This document shows positions 35,621 through 39,413 of a DNA stretch of 39,413 nt, one piece after another. The position numbers and the translations under genes were made by a program. The notes beneath the pieces were generated by a model. That model worked only from the letters and a program-made list of their open reading frames with translations. It had not been told where the DNA came from and made no database searches. The stretch's first letter is position 1. The number at the start of each line of letters is the position of its first letter. The DNA lies in IMG/VR virus record IMGVR_UViG_3300002461_000236, positions 1-39,413 of that record. One strand, 5' to 3'. Source of the DNA: a virus.

Positions 35621-36357
35621 CAGACAAGCAACCCGACCGCGCAGAGCGGGAAGCGTTTGAGCAAGCCATGAACACCGCCCGGTTCTTCCCCCGCCAGATA
35701 GATTTCAGGAAGACCGCTTCGCCGAGCGGCAAGCGCGACGTGCTCGTCAACTCGCTTCTGGAATCTTGCTGGATCGGCTGGCAGGCCCGCGCAGCCCTTG
35801 CAGCACCCCAGCCCGGATATGTGCTGGTGCCAGTTGAGCCGACGCACGACATGCTGCGCGCTCTTTCTGGCGAATGGCACCCAAGCAGACATCAGCCGGA
35901 ACGCTATGCTGCCATGCTCGCAGCAGCCCGCAAGGCACCCCAGCAGGAAGCGCCAGCGGTGCCAGACGACCCGATGGATTGGAAGCTTCCATGCGATGTG
36001 ACTGTCGGGCACGGCACCATTGGCAAGGGCGTGCCACTGCGCACCTTGGTGACGCGCATGAAGGTGCTGTATGAAATGGCGACAGGCAAAAACGCCGACG
36101 AAGTTGCCAACAGGACACCGGAGCAGAGGGCCGCGCTGTTCGACGCATTCCGTGCGCAGCAGGCAGCACCCCAGCCCGAGGCTGCGGCGATGACGCGAGA
36201 GCAAGCACACGCCTTGCGCCAAGGCCACGAGATCGCTGCAGCCGATGCCTACTTTGAGGCACGCCCACAGATCGACAGCAACGACCGCCGCAAAGTCTTT
36301 GAGGCCGGGTTCCAGCGCGGCTGGGACGCAGCTTTGTCTGCACAAGGAGGTGTGTGA
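35617..36357 (+). CDS. Hypothetical protein
   Basis: 246 aa with ATGA overlaps on both sides. Confidence 0.65.
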   Translation: MTDKQPDRAEREAFEQAMNTARFFPRQIDFRKTASPSGKRDVLVNSLLESCWIGWQARAALAAPQPGYVLVPVEPTHDMLRALSGEWHPSRHQPERYAAMLAAARKAPQQEAPAVPDDPMDWKLPCDVTVGHGTIGKGVPLRTLVTRMKVLYEMATGKNADEVANRTPEQRAALFDAFRAQQAAPQPEAAAMTREQAHALRQGHEIAAADAYFEARPQIDSNDRRKVFEAGFQRGWDAALSAQGGV

Positions 36358-36632
36358 TGGCCCGCACCGTCATGCGCATCATGGGCGCCACTCTGCTGAG
36401 CGAGATCCCATGGAACATGATCGCGCCGCACGAGGCCCAGGCGCAATCCAATCATGGGCCGTCGTTGGAGCGTCTGGCACAGCGGGGAGGGCTGGGCGCC
36501 AGCGAAGCCATCGACATCATCGAGGGCCGCCGCTGGGGCTCTGCCAAACCGTGCATCGAGAACGAGCACTACCTCATCAATCTGGTGCGCTCGTGGCGCG
36601 CAACCATGACAGCAAAAGGAAACAAGCCATGA
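36354..36632 (+). CDS. Hypothetical protein
   Basis: 92 aa. The block IPWNMIAPHEAQAQSNHGPSLERLAQRGGLGASEAIDII looks like a conserved phage protein of unknown function. Confidence 0.65.
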   Translation: MMARTVMRIMGATLLSEIPWNMIAPHEAQAQSNHGPSLERLAQRGGLGASEAIDIIEGRRWGSAKPCIENEHYLINLVRSWRATMTAKGNKP

Positions 36633-36871
36633 TCGGCGACCTGCAACACACCCCCATCCAAGGCATCGTGATCAGCGCCGTGGGCCACGAAGGGCTGAGC
36701 GTGCTGGTCAACGGCAAGCCAGCGCGCCTGGCCATCATCGACGACAACGGCCAGGTGCTGGCCGCCGGCAGCGACGTGGCCAAAGAGGCCGAGGCCGTAT
36801 CGGTCAACAGCTACCGCAACTTTCTCAAGGGCCAGGGCTTTCTGCGCGTGCTCAGCAAACCACTCACCTAG
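36629..36871 (+). CDS. Hypothetical protein, last gene of the early operon
   Basis: Start MIGDLQHTPIQG (ATGA overlap). 80 aa. A strong terminator follows. Confidence 0.65.
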   Translation: MIGDLQHTPIQGIVISAVGHEGLSVLVNGKPARLAIIDDNGQVLAAGSDVAKEAEAVSVNSYRNFLKGQGFLRVLSKPLT

Positions 36872-36891
36872 CCACGCCGCCACCCCGAGCC

Positions 36892-36919
36892 AGCCCGCCC
36901 CGCGCGGGCTTTTTCTTTT
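36892..36919 (+). terminator. Rho-independent terminator of the early operon
   Basis: AGCCCGC-cccgc-GCGGGCT followed by TTTTCTTTT. Confidence 0.85.
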
Positions 36920-36960
36920 GTGCCCGTAGAATCGCGCCCGCACCACACGCTGGTGCACCG

Positions 36961-37017
36961 CTAGGGGTGTCCTGCGCCGGCGACGGCAAAGGGCTGAGAT
37001 CACACCCTTCGAACCTG
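36961..37017 (+). promoter_or_regulatory. TPP (THI-box) riboswitch-like element, 5' portion only
   Basis: CTAGGGGTGTCC...GGGCTGAGAtcACACCCTTCGAACCTG. GGGTGT (36965..36970) pairs with ACACCC (37002..37007) as P2. A P3-like stem CCT/AGG encloses GCCG-GCGA-CGGC (GNRA loop). The conserved CUGAGA and ACCC-UU-GAACCUG blocks are present. The pyrophosphate-sensing 3' half (GCG-AGGGA) is absent. Confidence 0.4.
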
Positions 37018-37019
37018 TT

Positions 37020-37044
37020 GCCTGCATAGTTTTACTTTGCAGGC
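37020..37044. other. 25-bp near-perfect palindrome (attP-core candidate for the serine integrase)
   Basis: GCCTGCAtAGT-TTT-ACTtTGCAGGC: 10/11 matching arms around a T-rich centre. It lies 65 bp upstream of the integrase gene and starts exactly where the riboswitch-like similarity stops. Confidence 0.35.
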
Positions 37045-37078
37045 TTGAGATCAGCCCCAAGCTACTCTAAGTAAACTA

Positions 37079-37103
37079 CCCTCTCGCCACCATATCGAGA
37101 GGG
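37079..37103 (+). promoter_or_regulatory. Hairpin sequestering the integrase Shine-Dalgarno sequence
   Basis: CCCTCTCG-9 nt-CGAGAGGG. The 3' arm contains the GAGAGGG SD, located 5 nt before ATG 37109. Confidence 0.55.
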
Positions 37104-37108
37104 ATCGC

Positions 37109-38731
37109 ATGCGCGAACGGGTTTACAGCTACCTGCGGTTTTCTGACGCCAAGCAGGCAGAGGGGTACAGCACCGAACGCCAGACCGCCTACGCCGAGGC
37201 GTGGGCCAAACAGCACGGCCTGCAGCTGGATGCTGAGCTGAGCATGCGGGACGAAGGGCTGTCGGCCTACCACCAGACGCACGTAAAACGGGGCGCGCTG
37301 GGTGTGTTTCTGGCGGCCGTTGAGGCTGGCCATGTGCCCACCGGGTCGGTGCTGGTGGTCGAAGGGCTGGACCGGCTGTCCCGCGCCGAGCCCATCCAGG
37401 CGCAGGCGCAGCTGGCATCCATCATCAACGCGGGCATTACCGTAGTGACGGCCAGCGACAACAAGGAATACAGCCGGGAGCGCCTGAAGGCCAACCCGAT
37501 GGACCTGGTGTACAGCCTGCTGGTGATGATCCGCGCCCACGAAGAAAGCGACACCAAGAGCAAGCGCGTGCGCGATGCCATCCGGCGACAGTGCCTGGGC
37601 TGGCAGTCGGGCGCCTTCCGCGGCCTGGTGCGCTACGGGCAGGCCCCGAGCTGGCTACAGGTCGTGGACGGCCGGTGGCAGCACATACCCGAGCGGGTGG
37701 CGGCACTGCGCGCGGCCGTGGCCATGTTCCTGCGGGGCCTGGGGTCTGGCGCCATCGCCAAGCGCCTGCATGAAGACGGCCTGACCATCAGCGGCAAGGT
37801 GCCGTCATCCGGCCACCTGGTGCGGCTGCTGCCCCACCCTGCGCTGGTGGGCGACAAGCACGTTGCGCTGGACGGCGAAACCTACGTGCTGGCCGACTAC
37901 TACCCGCCCGTCATCAGCCGGGACGAACAGGCCCAGGTGCTGCAGGCCATCGGCCAGCGCGGCCGGCGGCGGGTAAAGGGCGACATACCCTCACTGATCA
38001 CCGGCATGGGCATTACGGTGTGTGGCTACTGCGGGGCGCCCATGAAGGCGCAGACCATGGCCAACAAGCGCAAGGTGGACGGCACCATTCTGGACTGCAA
38101 CCGGCGCCTGCAGTGCACCCGGGTGAACCACGGCCAGCGCTGCAGCGTGGCGGGGTCTTGTTCGGTGGTGCCGATTGAGCGCGCCATCATGGGCTACTGC
38201 TCAGACCTGGTGAACCTGCAGGCCCTGAGCCGCGGCGACCGCACCGCCGCCCCACGGGCTGAGCTGGCCGCAGCGCATGCCCGCCTGCTGGAGATCGAAA
38301 CGCAGCTCACACGCCTGACAGATGCCCTGCTGCAGGCCGACGCGGGCCGGGCCCCCGCCACCTTCCTGAAACGCGCCCGCGAGCTGGAGGCCGAGCGCGA
38401 CACCTGGCAGGGCCGCGCCGCCACCGCCGAGCGGGCCCTGGTGGATTCAGCGCGCGCCGACATCGACGGCGTGGAACAGGTATGGCAGTCGCTGGCCAAG
38501 GGCGTGCTGGCGCTGGACATGGACGCCCGGTTGCAGGCCCGGCAGCTGATCGCCGACACCTTTGAGCGCATTGCCGTGTACCACAAGGGCGCCCGGGGCG
38601 ACAACCCGCGCGGCGTGCTCGACGTGCTGCTGGTGGCCAAGGGCGGCCACAGCCGCATGCTCAGCGTGGACGCGGCGGGGGCGTGGCTGGCAGGTGAGGT
38701 GATGGCGGACGAAGCGCAAGCCGAGCGGTAG
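37109..38731 (+). CDS. int: Large serine recombinase (integrase)
   Basis: The N-terminal resolvase domain (VYSYLRFSDAKQ...) carries the catalytic Ser in RFSD and LVVEGLDRLSR. A recombinase domain follows. The Cys cluster CGYCGAPM...CNRRLQC is a zinc ribbon. The C-terminus is coiled-coil. 540 aa. Confidence 0.9.
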   Translation: MRERVYSYLRFSDAKQAEGYSTERQTAYAEAWAKQHGLQLDAELSMRDEGLSAYHQTHVKRGALGVFLAAVEAGHVPTGSVLVVEGLDRLSRAEPIQAQAQLASIINAGITVVTASDNKEYSRERLKANPMDLVYSLLVMIRAHEESDTKSKRVRDAIRRQCLGWQSGAFRGLVRYGQAPSWLQVVDGRWQHIPERVAALRAAVAMFLRGLGSGAIAKRLHEDGLTISGKVPSSGHLVRLLPHPALVGDKHVALDGETYVLADYYPPVISRDEQAQVLQAIGQRGRRRVKGDIPSLITGMGITVCGYCGAPMKAQTMANKRKVDGTILDCNRRLQCTRVNHGQRCSVAGSCSVVPIERAIMGYCSDLVNLQALSRGDRTAAPRAELAAAHARLLEIETQLTRLTDALLQADAGRAPATFLKRARELEAERDTWQGRAATAERALVDSARADIDGVEQVWQSLAKGVLALDMDARLQARQLIADTFERIAVYHKGARGDNPRGVLDVLLVAKGGHSRMLSVDAAGAWLAGEVMADEAQAER

Positions 38732-38747
38732 GCGGCCCTCGGTGGTA

Positions 38748-38763
38748 CTGTATATTTATGCAG
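38748..38763. promoter_or_regulatory. LexA (SOS) box candidate 1
   Basis: taCTGTATATTTATGCAGtg fits CTGT-N8-ACAG with one mismatch and an AT-rich core. It lies 20 nt upstream of ATG 38784. Confidence 0.6.
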
Positions 38764-38783
38764 TGCTTTTACACGTTTTCAGG

Positions 38784-39152
38784 ATGCGCCACGACGGCCA
38801 GCGCCGAGCGGGCTCGGACCCTGCCCTGCGCAGGAGCGTGCGCGGGTGGCTGGAGTTCGTCCGATCCGATGGCGAAGGATCGCCCAGTTGGGAGGCGCAC
38901 CTGCGCAGTGAGCGCGGTGGTCACGACATCATCCCGCCCATCTATTACGCACACCTCCGGCGAGCTGATGGCGTGATGCACCTTGTGGGCCGTGAGGAAA
39001 TCGGGCGACCGAACCCCAAGGCCAAGGTGCGGCTGGTGGCTCAGTCCTGGCTGTGCGCTCAGGACCCGGCCGACGCACTGCCTCTGCTGCGGCGAGTGGT
39101 GATTGATTCGGTGACGGGGTTTTCGCCAGAGGATGACGACTTCCCAGAGTGA
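38784..39152 (+). CDS. Hypothetical protein downstream of a LexA box (candidate SOS-induced anti-repressor/induction factor)
   Basis: 122 aa from ATG 38784. The upstream part of the ORF-track ORF has low GC3 and contains the LexA box. There is no clear SD and no family was recognised. Confidence 0.55.
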   Translation: MRHDGQRRAGSDPALRRSVRGWLEFVRSDGEGSPSWEAHLRSERGGHDIIPPIYYAHLRRADGVMHLVGREEIGRPNPKAKVRLVAQSWLCAQDPADALPLLRRVVIDSVTGFSPEDDDFPE

Positions 39153-39168
39153 GCGCAAAACCGAAACA

Positions 39169-39184
39169 CTGTCTATCCAAACAG
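39169..39184. promoter_or_regulatory. LexA (SOS) box candidate 2
   Basis: CTGTctatccaaACAG has both conserved tetramers but a GC-richer core. It sits in the loop of the inverted repeat AAACCGAAA...TTTCGGTTT (39158..39196). Confidence 0.4.
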
Positions 39185-39312
39185 GCATTTCGGTTTCGGG
39201 CGGTACACTACCTGCCCGGCCGAGCAATTATTTCAACTTGGCTTGTGTTTCCGATATCATCCGCCGCAATCCCTGATGCATAGCCAGCATCCGGATTGCA
39301 CAGACAAAAGAA

Positions 39313-39348
39313 AGCCAACCACTCCCTACGGAACGGTCGGCTGCTTTT
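39313..39348 (+). terminator. Possible terminator spanning the repeat junction
   Basis: AGCCAACC-14 nt-GGTCGGCT (one mismatch) followed by gcTTTTgg. The 3' part is also present at 1..29. Confidence 0.35.
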
Positions 39349-39413
39349 GGCAATCGTCGCAGTCGTGGTGTGCCTCTACCAAAAGAACCCACTTCTGCAT
39401 TTCTGTGCAGCTC
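39320..39413. repeat. Terminal direct repeat, right copy (identical to 1..94)
   Basis: Exact 94-nt match to the start of the window. Confidence 0.95.

Follow-up and report, generated by a model that had tools for sequence, protein, structure and literature searches.

Why should a phage carry most of a riboswitch aptamer directly in front of its integrase gene? Our analysis addresses this question for IMG/VR record IMGVR_UViG_3300002461_000236, a viral sequence of 39,413 nucleotides from an activated-carbon metagenome (this whole stretch is hereafter called the window), in which the leader of a large serine recombinase gene contains the 5' part of a THI box, the aptamer of thiamine pyrophosphate (TPP) riboswitches. 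Positions 1-94 of the window are identical to positions 39320-39413; this 94-nt terminal direct repeat marks a circular assembly, so that the window displays the phage attachment site (attP), and the 39.3 kb unit is a complete phage genome. Between approximately 36927 and 37103 lies a composite module for the integration of a temperate phage. We consider it highly probable that attP recombines with a TPP riboswitch of the host, and that the phage restores this riboswitch with a promoter and an aptamer 5' part of its own; the architecture of the site, the junctions found in relatives, the native target and fold predictions support this. On balance we also favor a more far-reaching proposal, in which a widespread family of Burkholderiales serine-integrase phages uses the riboswitch hairpin as the bacterial attachment site (attB), a working TPP-responsive aptamer is rebuilt from phage 5' and host 3' parts, and the integrase-binding arm is hidden as an extra helix at the ligand-pocket junction.

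In the model that we propose, the integrase encoded at 37109-38731 would recombine attP with the P4/P5 hairpin of the host riboswitch. Insertion would cut the aptamer in the P5 loop, and the transporter gene would be parted from its host promoter and from the leading two-thirds of the host aptamer. The phage would compensate for this loss with the sequences that lie upstream of attP, namely a terminator, a -10 element, a 5' leader hairpin and its own P1(5')-P2-P3-J3/2-P2'-P4(5'), and the right junction (attR) would join this phage part to the host P5 loop, P5', GCG, P4', GGGAAG and expression platform.

Attachment sites of relatives and the native riboswitch target

Homologues of the integrase are numerous (1357 with E <= 1e-30), and the named ones belong to Burkholderiales (Variovorax, Polaromonas, Piscinibacter and Ideonella); the host is likely a member of the Comamonadaceae or a related Burkholderiales bacterium. 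A scan of viral contigs for the THI core yielded three classes of site. The attP class consists of the 5' half, an insert, the core, the P' arm and the integrase gene, while the attR class (over all searches L016, L023, L027, L169, L173 and others) has the 5' half and the insert followed by CGAGGTAATCCTCGCGCAGGGAAGC, which is the canonical TPP 3' half with P5 loop, P5', GCG, P4' and GGGAAG. The gene after attR encodes a TonB-dependent receptor in L023 and a CytX-like hydroxymethylpyrimidine (HMP) permease in L024; in L169 a P2-type replication protein, a deoxynucleoside monophosphate kinase and a methyltransferase are encoded upstream of the site and a TonB-dependent receptor downstream. Left junctions (attL) make up the third class (over all searches L011, L012, L014, L017, L019 and L034).

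Three lysogens, Variovorax sp. EBFNA2 (CP138496.1), Variovorax sp. AB1 and Piscinibacter gummiphilus, have an integrase homologue as the first prophage gene and host genes (a cys cluster, ferredoxin, Fpr and others) directly upstream of it. Their attL consists of a host-type THI 5' half that runs, with no insert, straight into TGAGGTAAGCCTCACGC...AAGTAAACT, the P' arm of the viral contig L009. The attL leaders of the lysogens score 28-47 bits over positions 1-105 of the TPP model. The AA-type P' arm GCCTCACGCACGGAAAG resembles the riboswitch 3' half TCCTCGCGCAGGGAAGC, and attL leaders with this arm (L011:9897-10002, L012:9901-10002 and L017:9723-9826) consequently reach 37-47 bits; the P' arm of the window has no such resemblance. 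Both ends of one prophage are seen in the IMG/VR contig UViG_2823715266_000002, where attL (48.2 kb) and attR (1.4 kb) share one strand and lie 46.8 kb apart. Its attL reads host TAAAAT promoter, host 5' half, GAGGTAA, P' arm and integrase; its attR reads last phage gene, terminator, TTACAAT, phage 5' half, 26-nt hairpin insert, GAGGTAA, host 3' half and a CytX-type gene. The integrase is 64% identical to that of the window and the last gene 67% identical to its counterpart at 36629-36871; with both end genes matched, the module is syntenic.

To define the uninterrupted target, one genome per species was searched for the host 3' half, which gave at least 120 loci, nearly all from Burkholderiales, so that the counts are those of a sample. 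More than 95 of the loci listed are uninterrupted native sites of the form GAACCTG, three nucleotides, GAG(G/A)T(A/C) and ATCCTCGCGCAGGGAAG. The AA type (GAACCTG, three nucleotides and GAGGTAATCCTCGCGCAGGGAAG) accounts for at least 86 loci; the CA type GAGATCATCC, which has the same core as the window, for at least about 9; and a third variant, GAGGTCATCC, for at least 3. CA-type hosts include Curvibacter microcysteis, Azohydromonas lata, Acidovorax, Comamonas, Ottowia and Aquabacterium commune, and across these genera the native site reads GAACCTGATTGAGATCATCCTCGCGCAGGGAAG. Three sampled native sites score 56.5-59.2 bits against the TPP covariance model (Rfam RF00059), above its gathering score of 54.3 bits, and are full TPP riboswitches. 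The genes downstream of native sites encode mostly TonB-dependent receptors (at least about 44) or CytX-like permeases (at least about 24), and the target is therefore a thiamine/HMP uptake riboswitch, not the thiC leader that the first-pass annotation of this DNA had in mind. The dyad of the AA-type attB, CCTG-ATT-GAGGT-AA-TCCTC-GCG-CAGG, is the P4/P5 hairpin itself, and its CA-type counterpart is CCTG-ATT-GAGAT-CA-TCCTC-GCG-CAGG; the symmetry needed by the integrase at attB would thus come from the stem of the riboswitch RNA.

Searches for the exact window THI core in viral contigs and for a complete P arm of the window type next to the host 3' half gave no match, the latter pattern being too strict; the relaxed metagenome pattern AGGCNN + GAGATCATCCTCGCG retrieved 15 real attR sites, and these served to locate the crossover. 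By BLAST, 14 of the 15 attR contigs align to the window from starts at 36927-36992, with 76-95% identity, and all end at 37056. This end is made up of GAGATCA (37047-37053), a G/T mismatch and a chance CC, after which the contigs run on as the host 3' half TCCTCGCGCAGGGAAG. In L173 the attR junction reads ...CTGAGATCACACCCTTCGAACCTGTTGCCCGCATCGTTTTACTTTGCAGGCTTGAGATCA joined to TCCTCGCGCAGGGAAGC, and the reciprocal attL in L034, whose integrase is 74% identical, reads host promoter, host 5' half, ...CCTGATTGAGATCA joined to GCCTCAAGCC..., and integrase. In AA-type sites the exchange can be assigned to the final two bases of the heptamer, both from polymorphisms at attR (GAGTTAAT) and from the left junctions of two small elements (L096 and L052), at which ...TGAGGTAA gives way to unrelated DNA. 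The best dyad centre within 36900-37140 is 37052/37053; about it the reverse complement of the P arm, ATCTCAAGCCTGCAAAGTAAAACTAT, aligns with the P' arm, GCCCCAAGCTACTCTAAGTAAACTAC, and six attP sites share proximal nCCTC and distal AAGTAAA(A)C on both arms.

From the junctions, the dyad centre and the shared half-site motifs together, we place attP at approximately 37026-37079, with the P arm at 37026-37051, a putative central dinucleotide CA at 37052-37053 and the P' arm at 37054-37079. The core GAGATCA (37047-37053), common to attP and the CA-type attB, corresponds to the P5 5' strand of the riboswitch and the loop bases UCA. We infer that this exact phage would integrate at a CA-type riboswitch, in which case the products of recombination would read ...TTGAGATCA joined to TCCTCGCG and ...ATTGAGATCA joined to GCCCCAAGC. 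The first of three readings in the first-pass annotation had put attP into this leader, with integration into a host thiamine-riboswitch leader and a replacement 5' half carried by the phage, and the junctions in relatives bear this out. The same reading had taken a 25-bp palindrome at 37020-37044 as the core of attP; the crossover lies at GAGATCA instead, the palindrome only overlaps the distal P arm, and identity with the host is exchanged in the P5 loop, about 35 nt further downstream than had been expected.

The phage-borne aptamer part and the integrase leader

The phage-borne part of the aptamer occupies 36960-37017 and contains the P1 5' strand, P2, P3 with a GCGA loop, the CUGAGA junction, the P2 3' strand, UUCGAA and the P4 5' strand CCUG, in the order GCTAGGGGTG from 36960, P3, GGCTGAGA, and ACACCCTTCGAACCTG to 37017. 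At the gathering threshold, the whole window gave nothing against Rfam. A permissive Rfam scan of 36850-37200 (351 nt) placed TPP RF00059 on 36963-37043 with 20.6 bits (E = 0.077, model positions 11-86). Set against the 54.3 bits of the gathering score, this result is borderline with respect to noise, and it is the comparative data that decide: the same element stands in the same place in phages with integrases 68-95% identical to that of the window, each with a different but paired P3. On these grounds we accept 36960-37017 as a true homologue of the 5' two-thirds of the TPP aptamer, which is not a riboswitch on its own. As the first-pass annotation had seen, the likeness to the canonical THI box stops at 37017, and past this point the Rfam alignment merely pairs CCUG with the CAGG of the palindrome.

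The pyrimidine-sensor half (P2, P3, CUGAGA junction and ACCCUUxGAACCUG; model positions 11-65) is complete in the window and in all 34 phage-type copies. The pyrophosphate-sensor half (P4/P5, J5/4 GCG and AGGGAA) and the closing P1 are absent from the window, in which the P' arm GCCCCAAGCTACTC follows the core. Compared with the RF00059 family, of which the native attB sites are full members, the window copy therefore lacks P5', J5/4, P4', GGGAA and P1', and the pyrophosphate-sensor half is supplied by the host at attR only. The attR form differs from the family in another way, in that it has a 26-78 nt hairpin insert at J4/5, which lies outside the family model. Intact THI 5' motifs are found at 16 of 17 insert-bearing genome loci and at all 12 metagenome loci examined, in scans that selected on the host 3' half and not on the 5' side. 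The P3 stems of the phage-type copies have 34 distinct sequences, all paired, and the ligand-contacting motifs are invariant. Where host and phage copies occur within one genome, P3 identity is 13/22, 17/20 (L096), 14/28 and 13/24, the invariant motifs are common to both, and the J3/2 linker differs (AAGT versus TCAAA). These differences in P3 mean that recent gene conversion fails to explain the conservation.

A -10-like hexamer, TAGAAT, lies at 36927-36932. In 34 of 37 phage-type copies such a hexamer precedes the THI box by 15-70 nt, whereas shuffled sequences lead one to expect about 2.3 such copies, and the median distance from the box is 37-38 nt, compared with 36 nt in native host sites; no good -35 element was found upstream of TAGAAT. 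TAGAAT is probably a promoter, from which the integrase gene would be transcribed in the free phage and the host transporter gene once the phage has integrated. The intrinsic terminator of the last phage gene (36629-36871) lies ahead of it at 36892-36919, with its stem at 36892-36910 followed by a T run, and insulates the leader from upstream transcription. The order of terminator, -10 element and THI box is repeated in L009, L029, L030, L058 and L198. Weak Rfam matches to ctRNA, CRISPR-DR28 and a Trp leader near the terminator are merely the terminator hairpin. Between promoter and aptamer, a 5' leader hairpin (GCACCA/TGGTGC, 36940-36956) is present in the predicted fold, and comparable hairpins were seen by eye in the native sites L039 and L045 and in other phage copies.

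The THI-box 5' part, the palindrome, the Shine-Dalgarno (SD) hairpin and the upstream terminator that the first-pass annotation had described are all found in the sequence. The palindrome, the arms of which (37020-37030 and 37034-37044) are complementary at 10 of 11 positions, is held in a 29-nt insert relative to the native riboswitch (37018-37046). The SD hairpin at 37079-37103 (CCCTCTCG/CGAGAGGG), immediately outside attP, encloses the SD sequence of the integrase gene and pairs 37079-37086 with 37096-37103 in 8 perfect pairs (-17.6 kcal/mol, z = -2.8). All these leader features lie on the plus strand, as does the integrase gene, which encodes 540 amino acids with Pfam Resolvase (PF00239) and Recombinase (PF07508) domains; attP and its core are given without a strand. 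A direct repeat of TGAGATCA had also been reported, and both copies exist (36995-37002 and 37046-37053), with the second starting at 37046, not 37047. The repeat looks coincidental: the first copy combines the universal CUGAGA motif with a linker variant that is also native, in L106, and the second is the att core. A functional repeat was considered and set aside, with the close relative L029 lacking it and the native host riboswitch L106 having the first copy.

The layout is shared by relatives. In L009, whose integrase is 68% identical, the terminator, THI-box 5' half, a 64-nt insert, CGAGGTAAGCCTCACGCCCGCCAAGTAAACT and an SD hairpin follow one another; P3 differs from that of the window yet pairs, and the insert palindrome and the SD hairpin also differ. 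The closest relatives, L029 (integrase 95% identical) and L030 (86%), have the same arrangement as L009. SD hairpins of differing sequence are present in L029, L030, L009 and L034 and there is none in the Variovorax lysogens (L011), which makes the SD hairpin an accessory feature outside the att module. In the free phage, the TAGAAT promoter and the incomplete aptamer would form the integrase leader; after integration, the integrase gene would lie behind the host promoter and host 5' half at attL, where the SD hairpin presumably limits its translation.

Folding of the rebuilt RNA and competing explanations

The loop of the palindrome is the distal P-arm motif AGTTTTACTT, and the whole forms a self-contained RNA hairpin at the P4/P5 junction. 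The P arm of the integrase site would be the sole foreign piece remaining inside the rebuilt aptamer; the left palindrome arm would close it into a hairpin and turn the P4/P5 internal loop into a three-way junction. It is by wrapping the distal P-arm motif into a hairpin in this way that the palindrome would let the rebuilt riboswitch still fold. Among 33 distinct inserts (26-78 nt), nearly all of the sequence lies in one or two hairpins, with a mean folding z of -4.3 and 94% below -2. As controls we used P' arms, which are never in the aptamer of the host transcript; their mean folding z is +0.5. We know of no need for an internal palindrome in serine-integrase half-sites, and the presence of hairpins in the inserts but not in the P' arms thus points to selection on the attR RNA. 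In unconstrained folds of the native L036 RNA and of the attR RNAs L173, L161 and L169, P2, P3, P4 and P5 all form, and an in-silico attR of the window (36960-37053 plus TCCTCGCGCAGGGAAGC) also folds with P2, P3, P4 and P5. The insert stands as a separate hairpin at the P4/P5 junction of the folded attR RNAs. In our proposal the chimeric riboswitch would remain TPP-responsive.

Several observations weigh against our interpretation. The attR elements score 30-44 bits for TPP, below the 54.3-bit threshold, with a large insertion in the P5 region, and the extra helix at J4/5 lies beside the pyrophosphate pocket, so that ligand sensing could suffer. P1 is apparently only about 3 bp long (GCU/AGC), as it is in native sites. 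The crossover is placed only to the shared 7-bp heptamer, within which CA was chosen from the dyad centre and the AA-type polymorphisms, and the dyad score was matched by 16 of 300 shuffles, which makes the symmetry weak when taken alone. The 14 aligned attR contigs share the window-like P side with the window and nothing else. An identical integrase occurs on 8 contigs, all of the same free phage at 100% identity, and no lysogen of the identical phage was found among them. Many insert-bearing chromosomal sites are without an intact prophage and have host genes or short remnants upstream.

An explanation in which the 5' half is a functionless passenger, acquired by aberrant excision or by gene conversion from attL, and in which integration merely disrupts or deregulates the transporter gene, is the most viable of the alternatives, although we judge it improbable. 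The element is clearly host-derived, the 5' halves of attL and attR are direct repeats that could recombine, and in L096 the host and phage copies are identical at 48 of 54 positions. A mere passenger is difficult to reconcile with the presence of the element in every attP and attR examined, in phages with integrases only about 57-68% identical, or with invariant ligand-contacting motifs beside 34 different P3 stems that all pair. The two copies are strongly different in P3 in three of four genomes, the -10 element and 5' hairpin are kept at native spacing, and the formation of hairpins by the inserts and not by the P' arms is sensible only if the attR transcript must fold. The suggestion of a captured host fragment, also made in the first-pass annotation, survives in this light as an account of evolutionary origin only, the fragment being conserved and structured across a large phage family.

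Less credible still is a sensor role of the leader, also suggested in the first-pass annotation, in which a degenerate or variant riboswitch for TPP, HMP or some related ligand would regulate translation of the integrase by way of the SD hairpin. In favor of a sensor are the intact pyrimidine-sensor half, the downstream hairpin that sequesters the SD, and the likeness of the AA-type P' arm to the riboswitch 3' half, which gives attL leaders 37-47 bits. The window, however, has neither the pyrophosphate-sensor half nor the GGGAA motif nor the P1 3' strand; the leader in its attP context is predicted to fold without P4/P5; and what stands in place of the missing parts is conserved in the manner of inverted integrase half-sites, not of RNA pairs. 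The SD hairpin, for its part, is outside the element, variable and absent in several relatives, and has no alternative pairing to the aptamer. A role of the palindrome at 37020-37044 as attP core or protein operator can be dismissed almost entirely: it is the strongest local dyad and follows directly on the end of the THI-box similarity, but the attR contigs retain all of it and 9 further window-identical bases before host sequence, no part of it is present in the attL sites, it is centred on a TTT of odd length, and L030 has a compensating stem change (GCCTGCA/TGCAGGC to GCCTGT/ACAGGC) with the loop motif GTTTTACTT fixed, as is typical of an RNA stem around a protein-binding motif.

Restoration of the host riboswitch from phage and host parts remains our preferred explanation, and some chimeras appear to outlast the phage. 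A hairpin-insert riboswitch was seen in about 13% of the sampled Burkholderiales loci among the matches listed (L035, L047, L050, L058, L069, L081, L087, L101, L116, L125, L140, L145, L152 and L154). The genes upstream are apparently those of the host in L058, L069, L087 and L140, and a weak phage-gene match lies upstream in L101; host genes upstream of several scar sites were identified by eye from translations. An intact prophage beside every insert-bearing chromosomal site was thus rejected, several having host genes or 0.6-6 kb remnants upstream, and the prophage-free sites are evidence of persistence of the chimera and no proof of its function. Since an attR is not an attB, such scars might protect the site from re-integration. 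Farther downstream, L161 and L177 each seemed to have a second insert-bearing riboswitch, but the long TPP matches there are thiC-type riboswitches of the ordinary kind, in which the P3a stem is long.

Relation to known systems and associated elements

Phages and islands with tyrosine integrases restore their targets, as with the 3' ends of tRNA and tmRNA genes and the alternative icd 3' end that e14 and phage 21 provide. As in those systems, the element described here carries a duplicate of the displaced part of its target (promoter and aptamer 5' part, 36927-37017). It differs from them in using a serine integrase and a shared core of only 7-9 bp, with no long block of identity between attP and attB; in duplicating a 5' part with its promoter, not a 3' end; and in keeping the duplicate outside the crossover region, separated from the core by 29 nt (P arm). 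Its target, moreover, is a cis-regulatory aptamer, and integration yields a chimera with one additional helix in place of a faithful copy.

The well-known large serine recombinase systems are those of phiC31, Bxb1, A118, TP901-1 and SPbeta. The window shares with them an integrase with Resolvase and Recombinase domains encoded beside attP, an imperfect dyad of about 50 bp with a non-palindromic central dinucleotide, a shorter attB with motifs nearer the centre, and very short identity between attP and attB. Characterised serine integrases insert into protein-coding genes or intergenic DNA, and the target is usually inactivated (comK, groEL1, spsM); here attB is a riboswitch RNA hairpin, the damage is compensated by the phage, and the P arm has an internal palindrome that appears not to be needed for recombination. 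To our knowledge, serine integrases have so far been thought simply to disrupt their targets. The arrangement at this locus would be a new form of damage limitation, in which a promoter and the greater part of an aptamer come with the phage, its P arm being shaped into a harmless RNA hairpin. If the more far-reaching proposal is true, it would provide the first example in nature of a riboswitch that is split and put together again, and also the first of a serine integrase whose target is restored; promoters would be swapped between the integrase and a host vitamin-uptake gene, and prophage-free attR scars might block re-integration.

The non-coding RNAs known as attB targets are tRNA/tmRNA and csRNA, to which ffs (4.5S RNA) was added as new in 2025 (PMC12540744, within which the review of Williams, 2002, is cited); riboswitches are not in this list. 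Those sites resemble the present one in that a structured RNA gene serves as attB and its own stem gives the symmetry, and they differ in having long identical cores, such as the 27 nt of phiEf11 (PMC12540744). We found no report of phage integration into a riboswitch in the full-text literature searched. A metabolite-sensing riboswitch would thus be a new class of phage attachment target, and an RNA stem-loop could double as a symmetric DNA site for a serine integrase. The TPP aptamer apparently tolerates helices of 26-78 nt at the P4/P5 junction, which is of use for riboswitch engineering and for covariance models; the latter now miss the chimeras (30-44 bits against 54.3). Odd insert-bearing TPP riboswitches in bacterial genomes may be explained as prophage junctions or scars, the att-site signature could assign hosts to uncultured phages, and the attP/attB pairs could serve genome engineering in Comamonadaceae.

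The prophages at these riboswitch sites belong to several lineages and have mainly the integrase module in common. A tblastn comparison of the window proteins with the at least 120 genome loci gave a single weak match, and a megablast search of 36000-39413 against GenBank phages gave none. Small segments also occupy the site (L096, 1.4 kb; L052, 0.64 kb; L191, 0.65 kb; and L188, L161 and L156, about 6 kb each). On one side they are bounded by a host-type 5' half that stops exactly at ...GAGGTAA or ...GAGATCA, and on the other by a normal attR, with neither an integrase nor a recognisable P' arm; they could be prophage remnants left by integrase-mediated deletion, or satellites without an integrase of their own that exploit this site. 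At the same riboswitch position, L031 (4657-5000), L032, L033, L144 and L199 have a mobile element of a second kind. In these an open reading frame (ORF) ending in ...AFPQT or ...AFPPES and its stop codon runs into (A)ACCTGATTGAGATCA; the element replaces the whole THI 5' half, with no restoration. L031 has inovirus-like genes (Phage_CRI) upstream and a serine-integrase phage directly after the second element, and L199 is a viral contig in which the second element is joined to the host 3' half.

At the unrelated loci L023:1888-2094 and L036:4453-4674, the riboswitch-controlled gene for a TonB-dependent receptor is closely followed by two identical tRNA genes in tandem (68 bits each). Elsewhere in the phage genome, the window encodes a KilA-N protein at 51-941 and a tape-measure protein of 1741 amino acids on the minus strand. 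A LexA-box-like sequence, TACTGTATATTTATGCAGT (CTG-N10-CAG), occurs at 38746-38764, directly past the integrase stop codon and at the head of a 136-amino-acid ORF (38742-39152), and in the related lysogens L012, L013 and L034 genes for SRAP, Peptidase_S24 and Y-family polymerase (UmuDC-like) proteins adjoin the integrase gene. Taken together, the box and these SOS-type neighbors suggest that the gene beside the integrase may be under SOS control.

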